Virus record (IMG/VR): IMGVR_UViG_3300038829_000049
Coordinates: 1 to 46,165 of that record
Length of the DNA: 46,165 nucleotides
DNA from: a virus
Reading direction: 5' to 3' (one strand)
This document shows positions 1,632-35,155 of the stretch, in pieces. Positions within the stretch are counted from its first letter, which is position 1; each line of letters opens with the position of its first letter. The notes beneath the pieces are model-generated. The model was not told where the DNA came from. It saw nothing but the letters and a program-made list of their open reading frames with translations, and did not search any database. The translations under genes were made by a program, and so were the position numbers.

Positions 1632-3694
1632 CGGGACCATGGCAGCGCTACGCGCCATCTGCGACGGCTGAGGCGTCCGGGCCATGGTCGAAATACCAGG
1701 GCGGCCTAAGTCAAGCCGATGTTGAGGCTGAGGCGCACGTGGCCGACATCGTCAAGAAAACCGGGGTCATCCCAGGCAAGCCGCTCGCCTACGGCATCCC
1801 GCTGATTGGCCCTTACCTCGACGAGGCGTCCGCCGCTGTAACCGCGCTGCCCAATATGGTGACGGGCGGCGCTGTCGGGCCATCTTACAATCAGGCACTT
1901 GCGCGTACTCGTGCGTGGAACCGTGCCGCAGAAAATGACGCGCCGATCAGAACAATGGTTGGACAGGTGGCGGCTGGCATAGCCACGGGCGGGCCTATCT
2001 TCAGCCGGATTGCGCCGGCGGCAACCATGGCAGGGCGCGTTGGTCAAGGTGCTGCGCTTGGCGCTGGTGTTGGTGCGGTGGAAGGGTTCGGCGCCGGCGA
2101 GGGCGGGATCGACAATCGCGCTGCACGATCGATTTCGACCGGCGCTCTCGGTGCTGGACTTGGCGCGGCATTGCCGATCGCCGCGACCGGCGTCACGCGG
2201 GGTGTCGGCGCGGCGATCGATGCTGTGCAGCCAACTTATCTGCGGATGCGACACGGGCCTGACGCTGCGGCTGATGCCATCCTCGCGCGCAAGATGGAGC
2301 AGGCGGGGACGTCGCCGGCGCAGGTCCGTTTGGACCTCCAGAGGGGGCAAGCGCAGTCGGCTCAGATGGGGCCAAATTCACGGGCTGAGCTACCGGAAAC
2401 AATCGCGGACACGTCCGATGCGATGCAACGCCTTGCGGGCAGCGTTTATCGTTCTGGCGGGGAGGCAGGCAACTTCACGCGTGCGGCACTGGAAGGGCGC
2501 CAGCGTGGGCCTGCGAACCCCTACGCGCCACAGCCCGGCGAGGCCAGTGGGCAGCGCACGAGGATCATGGACGGGACCGAGCGAGCCTTGCAGATCAGGT
2601 CAGCCGGGTCTGCGCTGCAGACCGAACGGCAGATCATGCAGGATCAGGCCAGAGAAGGACAGACGCTCTACCGGCAGGCGTTCCAGCAACAGCAGCCATT
2701 CGAGATACAGAGCGTTCTGGACGGGTTTGCGCTCCAGGCGCAGCAGTATCCGGCGCCGTTTCAAGCGCGATTGCATCGCGCGCTCAATCTGTTCCGCGAC
2801 AACAGTCCGACCCGCATGCCGGTGACGAACCTGCAGCGATTCGATGCCGCCAAAAAAGCGCTCGACGACATGATCGAGACGGCGCAGCGCCAAGGCCAGG
2901 GCAACCTCACCCGCGAGTTGACCGGCTTAAAGAACGAATTGCTCGGATCAGTGCACGCCAATGGGCAGAACCAAGGATATCAGGCCGCACGTCAGGCATG
3001 GGGGTCGGCCGCCGAAAACCGCGAGGCGATCGAGCTTGGGCGAGCCGCATTGCGTGAGGGCTCGGAGATCAGCGCGGAGCAATACCGTGGATTAACGCGC
3101 GGCCAGCAGCAGTTGTTCCGCATCGGCTATCTGGAAAGCCTGCGTAATTCACTCGGAACACGCAAGCCCGGCAGCGACGTGACGCAACTTTTCCAGCAGG
3201 CGCGGGTGCAGGAACTTATGAACGAGATCATTCCAAGGTCGGCCGGCCGCAACGCCGTCTACGCCAACAGGCCGGAGCGGTTCGGCGACCTGATGCAGCG
3301 CGAGGCGCGCATGGTGCAGACCCGCAACGGCGTGCTTGGCAACTCGGCGACGGCGCAGCGCCAGCAGGATGATATGGGGTTTGCTGGCGACGCGCTGGCC
3401 AGCATGTGGAACAGGTTCCGCTCAAGCCCGTCGCTGTTCAACATGGGTGTGGAAGCGGTTGGCGTTGGTATTCAGAAGGTGTTCGGCTACCGCCAGGACG
3501 TTGCTCTTGCGCTGGCGCAACGTCTTCTTGAGAGCAATCCACAGGTGAGAAATCAGATCCTGCAGCGCCTACGAGCGCGGGGCGGGCCTGACCGGTTGGC
3601 GCGGTTCGCCGATGCGGTTGACCGATCGTCGATGACGCTGATCGGCAGCGCGACCGCCCCACTGCAGATCGAAGGGGAAGGCGGAGCGCGGTGA
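1628..3694 (+). CDS. Large internal virion/ejection protein candidate with a Gly/Ala-rich hydrophobic segment
   Basis: ATG 1628 overlaps the upstream TGA (ATGA); an alternative start is at 1610. Glycine-zipper-like stretches are present (GAALGAGVGAVEGFGAGEGG, GALGAGLGAALPIAATG). Function is by position only. Confidence 0.6.
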   Translation: MTGPWQRYAPSATAEASGPWSKYQGGLSQADVEAEAHVADIVKKTGVIPGKPLAYGIPLIGPYLDEASAAVTALPNMVTGGAVGPSYNQALARTRAWNRAAENDAPIRTMVGQVAAGIATGGPIFSRIAPAATMAGRVGQGAALGAGVGAVEGFGAGEGGIDNRAARSISTGALGAGLGAALPIAATGVTRGVGAAIDAVQPTYLRMRHGPDAAADAILARKMEQAGTSPAQVRLDLQRGQAQSAQMGPNSRAELPETIADTSDAMQRLAGSVYRSGGEAGNFTRAALEGRQRGPANPYAPQPGEASGQRTRIMDGTERALQIRSAGSALQTERQIMQDQAREGQTLYRQAFQQQQPFEIQSVLDGFALQAQQYPAPFQARLHRALNLFRDNSPTRMPVTNLQRFDAAKKALDDMIETAQRQGQGNLTRELTGLKNELLGSVHANGQNQGYQAARQAWGSAAENREAIELGRAALREGSEISAEQYRGLTRGQQQLFRIGYLESLRNSLGTRKPGSDVTQLFQQARVQELMNEIIPRSAGRNAVYANRPERFGDLMQREARMVQTRNGVLGNSATAQRQQDDMGFAGDALASMWNRFRSSPSLFNMGVEAVGVGIQKVFGYRQDVALALAQRLLESNPQVRNQILQRLRARGGPDRLARFADAVDRSSMTLIGSATAPLQIEGEGGAR

Positions 3695-3781
3695 GGTTCG
3701 TCCAGGCTCACAATTCCTCAAAAACTGCAAGCCCTGACCCGCGCTCCGCCGAGATGAAACCACCGATGAGGATGCAACGCA

Positions 3782-5473
3782 ATGGCTGACATCGCCGGCC
3801 AGTACATTGACGAACTGCTCTCGTCAGGGAAGCCGTTCCCTTCGATCGACGAGATCCAAGCAGAGATATCGAGGCGGTCTGGCCCCACGAACAACCGCGA
3901 ACGCCAGTTTGCCGCACGTCGCGCAATGTCGGGCCGTGATCCGTCATTGTCTACAGCAGACCGAGAGGCCGTGGCACGACGTGCGTCCATCAGCGAAGAG
4001 AACAACCAGGCCATCGAGCGTGGGGTCGGAGAGCTTGTGCTGGGTCAGCCGATCCGAGCTGGGCGGGCCATTGGGGAAGCCTATGAAAAGCCCTCGATCG
4101 CAAATCTGACGGCGGCCGGTGCGCATACGGCATTGGCTGCATTCCGGCCAATGACGGCGGGTGCGTTTGCCGTTGGCGGAATGGGCGCGGCGGCAGCGTC
4201 GGACTTGGCTGACGAGTTCGTATCTGATGCCGGTGCCCAACAGCGAAATCAGCCGAATGCACGCGCCAGAGCTGCGAATGCCGAACGCTCGGCAGCGAGA
4301 GAAAAGGTAAACCTTCTCAAAACCGAGAACGCGAAAGCGGCCGATGACGAGCGCCGGCGTATCGATGCGCTTGACCGCAATGAATACGACGCCGCCGTCA
4401 GCCGGGCCGAGGCTGAGAAAAACGCAATCCTCGCCGACAAGCCGAAGCGGTTCGGCGATACGGCAGTCGGTGAAGTCTACAACAAGCTCGGCATGATCGC
4501 GCCGGGTGTCATTGCTGCGGGTATGGGAGGTGTGTCTAGGCTTGGCTCTGCCGCGCTCGGCTACAACGGCAAGATCGCAAACTATGCAGCACCTGCGGCC
4601 GTTGGAGCGGTAACGGGTGGGGTTTCTGCCAGTTGGCCGCTTGGGCACGAATTGCTTTTTGAGCCGGCGGCTAATCCGGAACGGAGGGCCTATGAGGCGT
4701 ATGCGCGCGAACTGCCGCCGACGCACCCGCGGAAACAAGAGTGGACGGATTACGCTCTACGCCAACCCGAAGCGAACCCGGCACGTAATGCAGCGTCGGA
4801 AGAGTTTTATAATCCAACCAAGTTCATGGAGCGAACAGGAGTCGGCGTAGCTGAGGGGGTGCTTGGCGGTCTTGCAGGCTCTGAATTCGTCAACACGTTG
4901 AGGCACCCCATCCGCGCATCTAACTTGTTTGGCGGAGCCAACCGTGGAGCTGGCGGAGGATCTTCTCCTGGCGGTCCGCCGGGAGCTGGCGCAAATAGCG
5001 GGCCAAATTTTCCGCCGCTACCCCAGCAGCCCCCTCAAGGCGGAATAACTCCGCCTTCCGGTCCAATGCCGCCGACGTATCCGCCTTACGATCCGCTATT
5101 GCATGGGCCTGTTGCACGGCAATACCTCGATGATGCGTTGTCGTCAGGAAGAGTGCCAGAAACCGACACGATGGTCAATCAGTTGCAGGGTCAATTTGTT
5201 GGTCGAGGCTGGCCACAAGTTGACCCTGCTAACCTTGCCCATCGTGCTCGCGGAACCGTGGAAGAGTTGATGATGATCGATCAACTTCTTCGCTCCGGCC
5301 AAATGCGCCGGACAGTGACTGGCCAAGAGGTTCGTCAGCCTGTTTTGAACGCATCGACCGGGCGTGATTACACGTTGGCCGTCCCCGCTGCCGCACTTCC
5401 TGCGGCCGGTTACTATGGCATGCCAGAACAGCCACCAAATGCCCTGATGCAACATCGAGCCGACCAGTATTGA
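3782..5473 (+). CDS. Internal virion/ejection protein candidate with a Gly/Pro-rich low-complexity tract
   Basis: 563-aa ORF with hydrophobic G/A segments and a GGANRGAGGGSSPGGPPGAGANSGPNFPPLPQQPPQGG tract. Function is by position only. Confidence 0.6.
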   Translation: MADIAGQYIDELLSSGKPFPSIDEIQAEISRRSGPTNNRERQFAARRAMSGRDPSLSTADREAVARRASISEENNQAIERGVGELVLGQPIRAGRAIGEAYEKPSIANLTAAGAHTALAAFRPMTAGAFAVGGMGAAAASDLADEFVSDAGAQQRNQPNARARAANAERSAAREKVNLLKTENAKAADDERRRIDALDRNEYDAAVSRAEAEKNAILADKPKRFGDTAVGEVYNKLGMIAPGVIAAGMGGVSRLGSAALGYNGKIANYAAPAAVGAVTGGVSASWPLGHELLFEPAANPERRAYEAYARELPPTHPRKQEWTDYALRQPEANPARNAASEEFYNPTKFMERTGVGVAEGVLGGLAGSEFVNTLRHPIRASNLFGGANRGAGGGSSPGGPPGAGANSGPNFPPLPQQPPQGGITPPSGPMPPTYPPYDPLLHGPVARQYLDDALSSGRVPETDTMVNQLQGQFVGRGWPQVDPANLAHRARGTVEELMMIDQLLRSGQMRRTVTGQEVRQPVLNASTGRDYTLAVPAAALPAAGYYGMPEQPPNALMQHRADQY

Positions 5474-31086: not shown

Positions 31087-31545
31087 ATGCCCCGTATAGC
31101 CTACTCCATCGATCTCGCCTCCCGCGTATGCGCGCTCATGCTGACCCGCAAGGAGGACGGCAATGTCATGAGCCTGCGGGACATCTGCAGCATCGATGAC
31201 ATGCCGGCAGAGGGGACGCTCTACAGATGGCTCAGTGAGAACCCGGAATTCGGCGAGATGTACGCGCGTGCGCGTGAAGAGCGGGCGCATCTGGCGGCTG
31301 AGGACATCATCCACATCGCCGACACCGAGCAAGACCCCAACAAGGCCCGCGTTCGGATCGATGCCCGCAAATGGTATGCATCCAAGCTCAATCGCAAGGA
31401 CTACGGGGACAGCCTGGATCTCGGCGGCGGCCTGCATGTGAAGTTGACTGATGACCAGCTTGAATCTCGCCTTGCTCACATCCTCGGAAAAGCGGGAGTT
31501 GCTCTCGCTCTTGGACGAGAAGGAGCGTCGGAAGAAACGCCGTAA
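31087..31545 (+). CDS. terS: Terminase small subunit
   Basis: SLRDICSIDDMPAEGTLYRWLSENPEFGEMYARAREERAHLAAEDIIHIAD...RIDARKWYASKLNRKDYGD matches the common TerS pattern (..W......F...Y..AR......E...IAD......R...D.RKW..SKL.P..YGD). Confidence 0.6.
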   Translation: MPRIAYSIDLASRVCALMLTRKEDGNVMSLRDICSIDDMPAEGTLYRWLSENPEFGEMYARAREERAHLAAEDIIHIADTEQDPNKARVRIDARKWYASKLNRKDYGDSLDLGGGLHVKLTDDQLESRLAHILGKAGVALALGREGASEETP

Positions 31546-32200
31546 GCTGTTCGACCTCTACCCCAGCGAAGGGCCGTTGCGGCGGGAGTTATACGCCAAA
31601 CACCTGCAGTTCTTCGCTGGCGGTTCCGAGCACATGGAACGCTGCATGATGGCAGCGAACCGCGTGGGAAAAACCTGGGGTGTCGGCGGCTACGAGACGG
31701 CGCTGCATCTGACCGGACGCTATCCAGATTGGTGGCCAGGCCGGCGGTTCACGGACCCGGTTGGCGCATGGGTGGCTGGCGACACGCGGACGACGACGCG
31801 AGATATCATCCAGGTGGCGTTGCTAGGTGTCGGCGGTGATGCGGGCTCTGGTGAAATGGGAACGGGGCTGATCCCCGGCGATGACATCGCAGGCAAGCCC
31901 ACACCGATGCAGGGCGTGCCGGGCGGTATCGATACGGTCGCGGTTAAGCATCGATCGGGCGGGCTCTCGATCCTCGGGTTTAAGTCCTACGATCAGGGCC
32001 GGCGAACGTTTCAGGGCACGCAAAAGCAGGTTGTCTGGCTCGATGAGGAGCCGCCCATGGACGTATACGAGGAGGCGATGCTGCGGTTGACGGCGACGGT
32101 GCCGGGTGAGGTCAACGGGTTGATGCTCTGCACGTTCACGCCGCTGCTTGGATTGAGTAAGGTGGCGCTTAAATTCCTGCCGGAGATGGCGCCGCATTAG
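31451..32200 (+). CDS. terL: Terminase large subunit, N-terminal ATPase part (ends at an in-frame TAG)
   Basis: Walker A is AANRVGKT and Walker B is VVWLDEEP. It ends with TFTPLLGLSKVALKFLPEMAPH then TAG. It overlaps terS by 95 nt. Confidence 0.8.
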   Translation: MTSLNLALLTSSEKRELLSLLDEKERRKKRRKLFDLYPSEGPLRRELYAKHLQFFAGGSEHMERCMMAANRVGKTWGVGGYETALHLTGRYPDWWPGRRFTDPVGAWVAGDTRTTTRDIIQVALLGVGGDAGSGEMGTGLIPGDDIAGKPTPMQGVPGGIDTVAVKHRSGGLSILGFKSYDQGRRTFQGTQKQVVWLDEEPPMDVYEEAMLRLTATVPGEVNGLMLCTFTPLLGLSKVALKFLPEMAPH

Positions 32201-32339
32201 AATAAATTACCCTACTGGTCTCCGATTTCCCGAGGGCGACACTTTTGATGACGGCCGGAATGAGCAAAAAAAATCCAACCAGGCCGATAAAGCCGATTAG
32301 GCCGACAAATCAGAACCGCCAATTACCGGCCTTGGCAAC

Positions 32340-33071
32340 GTGAGCCGTCTCTGCGTCCAGGCCACGTGGAATGACGTGCCCCATCTGTCAGAGAAAACGA
32401 AGGCGGAGTTACTCGACGCGATGGAGCCGCATATGCGGGATGCCCGAACCAAGGGCATTCCCATGCTCGGCGCCGGTGCGATCTACCCGGTGCCGGAGTC
32501 CTCGTTTCTGTGTGACCCATTCGAGATGCCGGAGTTCTGGCCGCGCGCCTATGGCCTCGATGTCGGTTGGAACAAGACAGCAGCCATCTGGGGTGCGTGG
32601 GATCGAGAGGGCGACACGGTCTATCTCTATTCCGAGCACTACATGGGGCAAGCGGCTCCATCGGTGCACGCTGATGCGATCAGGGCCCGCGGCGATTGGA
32701 TGTGGGGCGCGATTGATCCGGCATCGGCCGGCTCGGGACAGATCGACGGCAAGAAGTTGCGTGAGGTCTACACCGGCATCGGTCTCAATCTCGTCGATGC
32801 CGACAACGCGGTCGAGGCCGGCATTCACGCTGTGTATCAGCGCCTCGTATCGGGTCGCCTCAAGGTGTTTCGCACGCTGCGCAACTGGACGGCCGAGGTC
32901 CGCATCTATCGGCGTGACGAGAACGGCAAAGTCGTGAAGGAGAATGACCACCTGATGGACGCTATGCGCTACCTGATCATGACAGGGATGAAGCTCGCAC
33001 GGATCGCGCCTGATTTCGATGATGACGATGTGCGCGAGCGTCGCCGCGCCAACAACAGCACCGGATATTGA
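32340..33071 (+). CDS. terL: Terminase large subunit, C-terminal nuclease part (start undefined)
   Basis: VQATWNDVPHLSE...ARTKGIPMLGAGAIYP...GLDVGWN...DHLMDAMRYL are typical TerL C-terminal motifs. This frame is open only from 32301. The GTG at 32340 has no RBS. It is in a different phase from the N-terminal part. Confidence 0.8.
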   Translation: MSRLCVQATWNDVPHLSEKTKAELLDAMEPHMRDARTKGIPMLGAGAIYPVPESSFLCDPFEMPEFWPRAYGLDVGWNKTAAIWGAWDREGDTVYLYSEHYMGQAAPSVHADAIRARGDWMWGAIDPASAGSGQIDGKKLREVYTGIGLNLVDADNAVEAGIHAVYQRLVSGRLKVFRTLRNWTAEVRIYRRDENGKVVKENDHLMDAMRYLIMTGMKLARIAPDFDDDDVRERRRANNSTGY

Positions 33072-35155
33072 TGCAGCCTGACATGATGGGGCAAGTCGTG
33101 CCCCTGCCGTTTCCACCGCAGCCGCCTCCCCCGCACATCCTCGCGATGCAAGCGAGGATAGATGCGCTCGCCGACATGGCGAAGATGGTCAACGCGGCGG
33201 ATGATGTCGAGGAAACAGAGCTGCACAAGATCGGCTCTAAGGTCGTTCGTGAATACCGCATCGATCGGGACAGCCGCAAGGAATGGGAGGACCGGGCCAA
33301 GCGGGCGATGGACCTCGCGCGACAGAAGAAGGAGGAGAAGTCGTTCCCGTGGCCGAAGGCATCGAATGTCAAATACCCGCTGTTGACCACGGCCGCATTG
33401 CAGTTCGCGGCCCGCGCCTATCCTGCGATTTGCGATGGCCCGCGCATCGTCAAGAGCCAGGTGCTCGGCGCTGATCCGGACGGCCAGAAAGCTGCATCCG
33501 GCGACCGCGTCTCGCAGCACATGAGCTATCAGCTCCTCTACGAGGTCGACGGCTGGGAATCGTCAGTTGACACGTCGCTGCATCAGATCCCGATCATCGG
33601 CTGTGCGTTCCGCAAGGTCTACGAGGACGACAGTTCCGAGGCCGGGTTCTGCGATGACCTGGTATCGGCGTTCGATTTCGTGGTGAACCAGGAGACCAAA
33701 TCGCTCAAGAAGGCGCCGCGCGCCACGCACGTGTTCACGCTCTACCCGCATGAGATCGCCGAGCGCCAGCGCGAAGGCCGCTATCTCGATGTCGAGATCA
33801 AGGGCGAGGCCGACAAATCCAACGAGGACGAGGACGCACCGCACACGATCCTGGAGCAGCATCGGCTGCTCGACCTCGACGACGACGGCATACTCGAGCC
33901 GTGGATCGTCACGGTGCACGAGAAAACCGAGCGGGTGCTGCGCATCTCGGCCTGCTTTGATCCTGGCAAGATCGCCACCAACAAGCGCACCGGCGCGATC
34001 ATCCGCATTCCCAAGCAGGAGTATTTCGTCAAGATCCCGTTCGTGCCTGATCCTGACGGCGGGTTCTACGATGTGGGCTTCGGCCATCTGCTCGAGCCGA
34101 TGTCTGACGTGATCGACTCGACCATCAACCAGATGATGGACGCCGGCACGCTGCAGAACGCCGGTGGTGGCTTCATCGGCGCCGGTGTCTCGCTCGGCAA
34201 GGGCAAGAGCGTGATCACGTTCAAGCCCGGCGAATATCGCACGGTGCAGACGGCAGGGCCCGACCTAAAGGCCGGCATCGTCCACATGGATCATCCCGGC
34301 CCGTCGAAGGTGCTGTTCGAACTGCTGTCGCTGATGATCGAGGCCGGCAAGGACGTGGCCAGCGTTCAGGACATCCTCGTCGGCGACATGCAGCGCAATC
34401 AGACGGCCACGGCGACCATGGCCATGATCGAGCAGGGGCTGAAGGTCTTCACGGCGATCTACAAGCGCATTTTCCGGGCGATGAAGGAAGAGTTCAAGCT
34501 CATCTTCGAGATCAACAAGCGGCGCATGGCCAACCAGGTTCCGCGCTATATCGCGCTGCTCGACGAGCCGGTTGAGGTCGCCGGCGCCGACTACATGGGC
34601 ACGCTCGACATCATGCCGGTCGCCGACCCGAACACGATCACCGATATGCAGCGCATGGCCAAGGCGCAGCTCGTGATGGACGAGGTGCGCAACGGCAACC
34701 CGCACGTGGATGCGTTCGCGGCGACCAAGCGCGCATTCGAGGCGGCCCGCATCGAGAAGCCGGAAGAGCTGTTCGTGCCTCCGCCCGATCCGAACCAGCC
34801 GCAACCGCCGAGCCCGGACGAGCGGATGGCAGAGGCCAAGATCGCCGAGCAAGAGGCCAAATCACAGGCCGCCATGCAGGCGCTCGGCCAGCGTGAACAG
34901 GAGGCGCAGGTCAATCTGCAGGCCAAGGCAGCTGATTATCAGCTGCAGTTCGAGGCCAAGCAGCGTGATGCTGAAATGCGCGCGATCGAGGCTGAGTACA
35001 AGCACCAGGAGCAACTCCGCACGCTGCAGTTCAAGTCCGACGAGCTCGACCAGCGCTATCGTGAACTGCAATTGCGCGAGGAAGAAATCAAGCTGCAGCA
35101 CGAGGCCAAGCGGTTTGCTGCCGAGCAGGCGATGCAGCCGAGCGAGACTGAATGA
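33068..35155 (+). CDS. Portal protein (P22-like, with a C-terminal coiled-coil barrel-like region)
   Basis: 695 aa, directly after terL (ATGA-coupled). NVKYPLLTTAALQFAARAYPAI is portal-like. The C-terminal ~120 aa are Q/E/A-rich helix. Confidence 0.8.
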   Translation: MMQPDMMGQVVPLPFPPQPPPPHILAMQARIDALADMAKMVNAADDVEETELHKIGSKVVREYRIDRDSRKEWEDRAKRAMDLARQKKEEKSFPWPKASNVKYPLLTTAALQFAARAYPAICDGPRIVKSQVLGADPDGQKAASGDRVSQHMSYQLLYEVDGWESSVDTSLHQIPIIGCAFRKVYEDDSSEAGFCDDLVSAFDFVVNQETKSLKKAPRATHVFTLYPHEIAERQREGRYLDVEIKGEADKSNEDEDAPHTILEQHRLLDLDDDGILEPWIVTVHEKTERVLRISACFDPGKIATNKRTGAIIRIPKQEYFVKIPFVPDPDGGFYDVGFGHLLEPMSDVIDSTINQMMDAGTLQNAGGGFIGAGVSLGKGKSVITFKPGEYRTVQTAGPDLKAGIVHMDHPGPSKVLFELLSLMIEAGKDVASVQDILVGDMQRNQTATATMAMIEQGLKVFTAIYKRIFRAMKEEFKLIFEINKRRMANQVPRYIALLDEPVEVAGADYMGTLDIMPVADPNTITDMQRMAKAQLVMDEVRNGNPHVDAFAATKRAFEAARIEKPEELFVPPPDPNQPQPPSPDERMAEAKIAEQEAKSQAAMQALGQREQEAQVNLQAKAADYQLQFEAKQRDAEMRAIEAEYKHQEQLRTLQFKSDELDQRYRELQLREEEIKLQHEAKRFAAEQAMQPSETE

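Follow-up and report, generated by a model that had tools for sequence, protein, structure and literature searches.

Fragmented phage genes, and terminases interrupted by inteins, introns or bypass elements, are already known. In Aeromonas phage Aeh1, a gene in pieces (nrdA-a / mobE / nrdA-b), which Friedrich et al. are said to have described in 2007, reportedly arose through a free-standing homing endonuclease. Among terminases, the gene of Streptomyces phage Hau3 contains two 10-nt blocks led by UUA and is a candidate for translational bypassing, a rare condition (3 of 100 ter genes) in which no start signals are present (PMC10732093); and a gp17-like terminase is among the fractured genes in which split-intein halves are separated by a homing endonuclease (PMC2677866). 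Our search of the literature found these bypassing and fractured-gene cases, along with inteins and introns, but no paper on a terminase large subunit (TerL) encoded by two genes. Here we analyze such a locus in a viral DNA of 46,165 nt, IMG/VR record IMGVR_UViG_3300038829_000049, the whole of which is referred to as the window. To judge from its sequence and that of its relatives, the TerL of this virus is very probably a natural two-gene enzyme whose halves are translated separately, and we regard the two-gene TerL as a new, uncharacterised example of genes in pieces.

The upstream open reading frame (ORF), TerL-N (positions 31451..32200, plus strand, 249 aa), encodes the ASCE ATPase core, including motif III and the Walker A and Walker B motifs; its last residues are KFLPEMAPH, followed by a TAG at 32198-32200. 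The downstream ORF, TerL-C (32340..33071, plus strand, 243 aa), is in the +1 frame relative to TerL-N; this frame opens at 32301, after a TAG at 32298-32300, and its first canonical start is the GTG at 32340, from which the ORF begins (GTG)SRLCVQATWNDVPHL. A preliminary description of this DNA had reported the same end of TerL-N, the same frame change and the same first start, all of which are borne out. By Pfam, the first ORF matches Terminase_6N and the second Terminase_6C, and the GC content at third codon positions (GC3) of the two (0.77 and 0.76) is like that of neighboring genes. The 139-nt spacer between them is 50% GC and has stops in all frames; in 100-nt windows over 32150-32324 the GC content is 0.47-0.50, as against about 0.58-0.66 in the flanks, so the intervening DNA is AT-rich as originally claimed. 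In the explanation that we favor, TerL-N would terminate at TAG 32198, TerL-C would be translated independently from GTG 32340, the 139-nt spacer would be intergenic DNA, and the two polypeptides would assemble non-covalently into a working terminase. We infer this assembly, as we do the coupling route used in the window and the endonuclease origin of the split, both of which are taken up below.

Profile searches and structure prediction place the break inside the ATPase module, in the loop that precedes its last beta-strand and the lid, and not at the border between ATPase and nuclease. When TerL-N is searched alone, the Terminase_6N profile aligns over positions 1-149 of 215 (41.1 bits), whereas in the joined protein it aligns over positions 1-214 of 215 (residues 65-304, 60.8 bits), spanning the junction, and Terminase_6C aligns over positions 2-153 of 155. 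The joined length of 492 aa is within the 459-502 aa of intact relatives, and a comparison with gp39 of EBPR podovirus 1 finds the motifs collinear and none lost. The structure of the P22 nuclease domain (4DKW) aligns only from about residue 43 of the C piece, and residue 196 of D6E TerL aligns with the strand at the start of that piece; the ATPase domain of D6E consists of the ASCE subdomain plus the lid, and is followed by a linker at residues 230-241 (PMC5727402). An AlphaFold prediction from the joined sequence by itself was unusable (pLDDT 34.5), whereas one based on an alignment of 62 one-piece homologues had a mean pLDDT of 87.7 and matches the TerL structures of D6E, HK97, T4 and Sf6. 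In this model, a strand at 224-229 (motif III) and a helix at 237-242 lead into the loop at 243-251 that contains the break and that falls in lower-confidence blocks (mean pLDDT 72 and 68); a strand at 252-257, which the C piece contributes and which adjoins the ATPase core, and helices at 267-275 and 279-287 follow. As modeled, TerL-C supplies the last strand of the core, the lid helices, the linker and the RNase H-like nuclease. The preliminary description had called the downstream piece the nuclease part, and it does contain the nuclease, but its first 42 or so residues belong to the ATPase module.

The preliminary description spoke of a 124-140 bp insert that interrupts the gene, but this is misleading: the nearest relatives are already split, with a spacer of about 70 nt, and only about 63 nt is specific to the window. 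A search with the TerL-N protein returned 4380 relatives, and every one of the best 120 (61-88% identity) is 185-265 aa long. With the joined N and C sequences as the query, the best 120 matches were one-piece TerLs of 459-502 aa, at 54-61% identity. Because the best TerL-N matches are half-length and the one-piece matches do not exceed 61%, all known relatives closer than about 62% are two-piece. In GenBank MW202785.1 (72% DNA identity), two coding sequences are annotated as 'large terminase protein', and, more generally, the halves have already been called separately by database annotators and there are half-length families in PHROGs. The best PHROG match of the window's N half (31451-32197) is phrog_31467 (261 positions, 'unknown function', E 4e-62); the general TerL family, phrog_2, matches it with an E of only 4e-10. 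Homologues that run straight through from FLP to ATWDD, as stated in the preliminary description, do exist but only at a distance (at most 61% identity): in EBPR podovirus 1, gp39 (57-59% identity, 480 aa) is one polypeptide, and an 18-residue linker, GGDIREQADEKSGRFVVM, takes the place of the window's break. TerL is also in one piece in the cultured relatives Xfas53 (a Xylella phage), Rhizobium phage RHph_N3_2 and Chlorobiaceae phage CV-1-33.

We gathered about 270 related loci (designated by L-numbers) from IMG/VR, metagenomes, GTDB genomes and individual contigs. Both ends of the junction are present in 218 of them: 97 have an intact gene and 121 have one that is split at the same aligned position. 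Close homologues that encode two polypeptides at this exact position, which the preliminary description had named as grounds for refuting the more exotic options, thus exist in number. Split loci include prophages in the genomes of isolates, i.e., of several species of Mesorhizobium, Sphingomonas melonis, two species of Azospirillum, Comamonas, Acidovorax, Roseomonas and Chromohalobacter; and since the split occurs in isolate genomes, it is not an artefact of metagenome assembly. That the stops and frame change in the window were themselves produced by an assembly or sequencing error is very unlikely. The exact 139-nt spacer occurs only in this window, and one related locus (L035) does resemble a frameshift error; however, more than 100 independent assemblies share the architecture, the homologues of the first 76 nt of the spacer are in spacers that were assembled independently, and an error would not account for a start codon in the conserved place.

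When TerL-C is searched library-wide, the 150 best clusters at 50% identity comprise 71 of one-piece TerLs, 16 of one-piece TerLs with inteins or extensions, 36 of stand-alone C halves, 8 of C halves carrying an intein, and 19 that are partial, such that the split form accounts for about 29%. Split and intact TerLs are interleaved over the tree, with at least 24 changes of state on a crude UPGMA of 182 unique N+C sequences; of the clusters formed at 35% distance, 34 contain only split TerLs, 30 only intact ones and 6 both. The closest credible pair of split and intact TerLs is 83% identical; L065 and L025, which are split, are 83% identical to the intact L184. One of these changes of state is accounted for by L035, whose 'split' consists of a 161-nt overlap in a TerL that is 99% identical to the intact L039, and which is probably a frameshift error or a fresh pseudogene. 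The window's TerL-N is up to 91% identical to that of relatives (L003), whereas its TerL-C never exceeds 80%, a difference that could reflect either separate histories with recombination at the gap or unequal evolutionary rates. The split is both conserved and ancient. Comparisons of the window with ten split relatives yield dN/dS of 0.06-0.18 for the N half and 0.08-0.18 for the C half (with dS of about 0.9-2, which is near saturation), and both halves have been under strong purifying selection since the split.

The junctions have the anatomy of neighboring operon genes; introns, bypass elements and frameshift sites look different. In a set of 113 unique split junctions, TerL-C starts with ATG in 69, ATT in 16, GTG in 15 and TTG in 10, and no start was found in 3. 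Stop and start overlap in 51 junctions, by 4 nt (ATGA-type) in 20, by 1 nt (TAATG-type) in 12 and in other ways in 19; the rest have gaps of 0-30 nt (9 junctions), 31-150 nt (23) or more than 150 nt (27, with a maximum of 2043). Whereas the spacing ranges from -31 to 2043 nt and all three frame relations are present, TerL-C starts at one of two fixed codons in 110 of the 113 junctions: either the codon aligned with the window's GTG (which is ATG, GTG, TTG or ATT in relatives) or one five codons upstream, which gives rise to a recurrent MP(E/A/Q)(V/I)S head. Frameshifting over the short overlaps was also considered but discarded: inspection of the junction sequences revealed no conserved slippery sites, though no scan dedicated to them was made, and frameshifting is inapplicable to a 139-nt gap with stops in all frames. 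A T(A/G)ATGCC junction module encoding MPxxS occurs in divergent TerL backgrounds, and some 25 loci have the MP(E/A/Q)(V/I)S head; the module may spread horizontally, e.g., by co-conversion during homing.

The start signals are unusual in the sister clade of the window, in which TerL-C begins with an invariant ATT, i.e., AUU in the message (L003, L006, L013, L084, L139, L247, L249-L252, L255, L261, L262, L264, L266, L267, L272 and L273). This ATT is invariant in 16 of 16 such junctions but accounts for only 22% of the isoleucine codons in these genes, as would fit a start codon rather than a linker residue. Many of the sister loci have a GAGG(A/G)AATA(A/G)A motif upstream of the ATT, and a TCN serine codon always follows the ATT; after ATG and GTG starts, the usual codon is AGC. 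TerL-C must initiate at AUU in L261 and L264, where the ATT is abutted by an in-frame TAG and an AAGGAG lies 8 nt upstream. Gene callers shorten the ATT-started C halves to 212-228 aa.

The spacer in the window has two parts of different history. Its first 76 nt (32201..32276, plus strand), which include an A8 run at 32266-32273, align globally with the complete 70-71-nt spacers of L003, L249 and L250 (z = 6.1, 4.2 and 4.5 relative to shuffled sequences), and the alignment extends to the GAGCAAA(n)TCC that immediately precedes the ATT start in these three loci. On this alignment the first 76 nt appear to be inherited, and the last 63 nt (32277..32339, plus strand) to be a lineage-specific addition. 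This addition contains three 9-mers (ggccgataa, agccgatta and ggccgacaa, at 32282-32308), which, along with the A8 run, are as originally reported. We found no other copies of it in the window, in the roughly 270 related loci or in IMG/VR by an exact 23-mer scan, which answers in the negative an earlier question about copies of the insert. The only repeat resembling that of a miniature inverted-repeat transposable element (MITE) or insertion sequence (IS) remnant is an imperfect and internal 10-nt inverted repeat (32281-32290 / 32323-32332), and this candidate was set aside. It had also been proposed that joining the CCG at 32192 to the CCG at 32316 would restore a single frame; the two are indeed 124 nt apart and each is followed by C, but such a removal has no counterpart in any relative, and the codons that it would add (PITGLGN) are unique to the window. 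An in-frame ATT, the codon with which the sisters start TerL-C, occurs at 32322-32324, six codons upstream of GTG 32340, and lacks a Shine-Dalgarno (SD) motif.

Several features of the spacers weigh against the separate translation of two functional halves. The unique 63-nt segment rests on a single assembly and could be a recent change that lowers the expression of TerL-C; no SD-like motif is present in the 25 nt before GTG 32340, as the preliminary description had noted; and a putative ORF within the spacer, which might otherwise deliver ribosomes to TerL-C, begins 44 nt after the TerL-N stop, its own translation being putative. To these must be added a property of the sister spacers that would suit bypassing: in 7 of 19 distinct short spacers, the codon preceding the TerL-N stop recurs in frame 44-62 nt downstream.

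The first two of these features would fit a recent inactivating insertion or a decaying prophage, in which the spacer, or its unique 63 nt, cripples TerL-C expression. The segment at 32277-32339 is found nowhere else, is AT-richer than the genome, and has 9-mer repeats of the sort left by slippage; moreover, the window has an SD-less GTG where its nearest relatives have an SD motif and ATT. However, the split is far older than this window; both ORFs are intact, with GC3 values (0.77/0.76) like those of their neighbors and dN/dS of about 0.1; and the region has neither a transposon-like structure nor a second copy. In addition, the GTG+AGC with which the window's TerL-C begins is shared with L243 and L263, and the GTGA overlap with an upstream ORF agrees with the chaining of genes in this operon. 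We therefore consider inactivation quite unlikely.

If the halves are translated separately, as we favor, there must be a route to a GTG that lacks an SD motif. The putative spacer ORF (32245..32343, plus strand, 32 codons) starts at TTG 32245 or ATG 32248, has a GAGGG 9 nt upstream of the TTG, and ends at a TGA (32341-32343) that overlaps the TerL-C start as GTGA; its 32-aa product has no match in Pfam or PHROG. The same overlap between the stop of a spacer ORF and the start of TerL-C occurs in L001, L004, L243, L005, L167 and others, and is the rule in relatives with long gaps. Nearly all genes in the window's packaging and structural operon are linked by overlaps of 4 nt or 1 nt, often without an SD motif, and the TerL spacer is its sole long gap. 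Because GTG 32340 lacks an SD motif and the operon genes nearly all overlap, we tentatively favor initiation of TerL-C by reinitiation after the 32-codon spacer ORF, although the odds that this particular route is the right one are somewhat less than even; SD-independent initiation is the alternative. A coupling role would fit the spacer ORFs that end on the TerL-C start, the overlap-chained operon, and the position of the spacer as its only long gap.

We looked for other signals in the spacer at the levels of DNA and RNA. A promoter scan found no sigma-70-like promoter, and terminator-like sites in the gap are only on the minus strand. The folding of the window's spacer and of four sister spacers is no better than that of shuffled sequences (z from -1.1 to +0.7), and RNAalifold applied to 12 related spacers gave no pairs and no consensus structure. 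By eye, a recurring plan can be made out in L003, L249, L250, L006, L245, L251, L262, L266, L267, L272 and L273, and at 32201-32250 of the window: TAG AAY, an ATTCC-like motif, a hairpin GU(G/A)UC...GA(C/U)AC, an A-rich tract and then the start. The hairpin was seen by eye only, has a shifting register and mismatches, and is degraded in the window.

The removal of the spacer at the RNA level, by a small self-splicing or processed intervening sequence that restores a single ORF, has a negligible probability. The spacer interrupts a conserved and essential gene, where phage introns are typically found, and its base composition differs from that of its flanks. Against this, a permissive Rfam scan of 32100-32450 gave only a spurious match to a long non-coding RNA (18.8 bits relative to a cutoff of 80), no Rfam family reaches its gathering threshold anywhere in the window, and neither the folding energies nor the search for a consensus structure in 12 spacers indicates a structured RNA. 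At 139 nt, the spacer is below the usual size of group I or group II introns. Moreover, in the many relatives whose ORFs overlap there is nothing to excise.

Translational bypassing of the T4 gene 60 type, with take-off before TAG 32198 and landing in the TerL-C frame to yield one fused TerL, warrants fuller consideration owing to the recurrence of the take-off codon. The permutation expectation is 3.0 of the 19 sister spacers (P of about 0.007), and before collapsing to distinct sequences the count was 10 of 22 (P = 0.0005). The take-off and recurring codons change together, being CAA/CAA in L003 and CAG/CAG in L249. Furthermore, UAG follows the last sense codon in the window and in most sisters, although some stop codon trivially follows the end of any ORF, and there is the precedent of Hau3. 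But the excess, which is not fully explained, does not extend to the window, where the take-off codon is CAT and the TerL-C frame, from 32301 up to the conserved ATW, contains neither CAT nor CAC. In the sisters, no possible landing codon exists in the spacers of six lineages (L006, L255, L261/L264, L262, L267 and L273); L013 has a landing codon that is absent from its own sister, L255; and three of the seven matches (L013, L084 and L259) have earlier copies of the triplet that are out of frame or before a stop. Neither gap length (-31 to 2043 nt) nor frame is conserved, there is no consensus RNA structure or excess folding energy, and the point of resumption is marked by an invariant ATT at which, in L261 and L264, initiation is forced. 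Bypassing is thus rejected for the window and unlikely in the sisters; taken over all of the evidence, we deem it highly improbable. Of the four options raised in the preliminary description, the genuinely split terminase is the one supported, and inactivating insertion, RNA-level removal and bypassing are not.

The halves could, in principle, be rejoined after translation, by trans-splicing of a split intein as in fractured genes. The gp17-like terminase among known fractured genes and the classical inteins at other sites in the TerLs of relatives speak for this, but TerL-N ends 5 residues after FLP and TerL-C starts 7 before ATW, too little for Hint fragments to fit; Terminase_6N and Terminase_6C are the only Pfam domains found; and the joined protein, at 492 aa, is as long as the intact homologues (459-502 aa). 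Length and domain content already exclude this reading, and its chances are vanishingly small. Because no Hint or intein sequence flanks the break, the TerL product would have to stay as two chains. The inteins in relatives are of the LAGLIDADG type (P0254, P0274, P0266, P0289, P0245 and P0249) and their sites include the ATPase core, the stretch that separates 6N from 6C, and the nuclease domain; stand-alone C halves have them as well.

What occupies the gap in other lineages points to an origin for the split, and in some of them the occupants are endonucleases. In L004, the gap contains an HNH_3+AP2 endonuclease that has its own AGGAGA and whose stop overlaps the ATG of TerL-C; L167 and L131 have classical HNH endonucleases; and L021 has a T5orf172/GIY-YIG-like protein. 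The last 39 residues of the L004 endonuclease match the 46-aa gap ORF of MW202785.1 (L001) at 59% identity (E 1e-7), and the gap ORF, because it matches this C-terminus, is a remnant left by deletion. The window itself has no endonuclease left, and its 139-nt spacer and 32-aa ORF match nothing. Most likely, free-standing homing endonucleases repeatedly entered this point of TerL and fragmented the gene; their subsequent loss would leave two ORFs, and the junction may spread along with the endonuclease.

Long gaps also hold assorted small ORFs and other inserts. The gap of L191 (roughly 3100-4280 of the locus) encodes a Tad2-like anti-Thoeris protein, a cargo unrelated to homing; that of L231 has a 421-aa ORF; and those of L222 and L239 have inserts of several genes, about 2 kb in size. 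The TerL gaps of the unrelated lineages L046/L047, L079 and L195 share a conserved 64-aa protein (MSDQEYLPGE...LWV) that has no match in Pfam. In L159, the 1437-nt gap contains a second TerL-N-like ORF of 240 aa, placing two N halves in tandem before one C half.

A bolder interpretation is that the two-chain architecture of TerL has been selected for, and is not a scar that the phages tolerate. It would require that the break between the core and the strand-lid-nuclease portion arose or spread many times, perhaps traveling with endonucleases by co-conversion; that TerL-C synthesis is tied to upstream translation, in the sisters by the invariant AUU and in the window by the GTGA-coupled spacer ORF; and that, in sisters with spacers of about 70 nt, some ribosomes may hop to the matching in-frame codon and so make fused as well as split TerL. 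Taken jointly, these propositions are unlikely to hold.

The window is organized like a complete, podovirus-like genome of about 46 kb, in which no tRNA genes were found, and the split gene lies between other packaging genes. Upstream is the small terminase subunit of the Sf6 type (31087..31545, plus strand; Pfam PF20901 Sf6_terminase, E 3e-29), which the called start of TerL-N overlaps by 95 nt (31451-31545); the starts of TerL-N in relatives are called 19-35 codons further in, and the true start in the window may thus be downstream. Downstream is the portal protein (33068..35155, plus strand), whose start overlaps the TerL-C stop (TGATG) and whose homologues in relatives belong to PF23899 SU10_portal.

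The weight of these findings lies in the breadth of the split, its position inside the ATPase fold, and the odd start signals in the sister clade. TerL, the hallmark gene of tailed phages, is their DNA-packaging motor, and translocation, in current models, requires the lid and nuclease to move with respect to the ATPase core (PMC5727402). If TerL does operate as two chains, the polypeptide need not be covalently continuous immediately ahead of the last core strand and the lid, and these phages would offer a ready-made two-chain system in which to test such models. At a practical level, half-length TerL genes confuse annotation and TerL-based phylogeny, and the split N halves are under-annotated. 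The locus also presents a clean case for studying how an essential gene can be fragmented by homing endonucleases and then persist as a stable split.

Its closest parallel is the nrdA gene of Aeh1. In both, an essential phage enzyme gene is cut at a conserved region into two collinear ORFs, whose products are translated separately and expected to reassemble, and endonucleases are present in the gap of some TerL relatives; unlike nrdA, however, the window lacks an endonuclease, the split gene is TerL rather than one for ribonucleotide reductase, and the split is old, very widespread (about 29% of the 150 best clusters) and interleaved with intact forms. T4 gene 60, in the split topoisomerase genes 39/60, resembles this locus in that an essential gene is interrupted by non-coding nucleotides directly after a UAG, and its spacer is similar in size to those of the sister phages (59-71 nt), but in the window the take-off codon has no landing codon to match it, the gaps vary in length and frame, and a start is conserved at the point of resumption. 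As in Hau3, the TerL ORF is broken into pieces that are annotated as separate genes; here, though, the gaps range from overlaps to 2 kb, the broken state is common, and start codons often have SD motifs. Fractured genes and intein-containing TerLs likewise show TerL to be a target of selfish elements, with an endonuclease between the gene halves, but no Hint or intein sequence is present at the break described here. Finally, one-piece TerLs of the P22/Sf6 type (e.g., those of EBPR podovirus 1, Xfas53 and RHph_N3_2) belong to the same family and have the same motif order and predicted fold, and differ in having a linker of about 18 aa where the window has a stop, a spacer and a restart.

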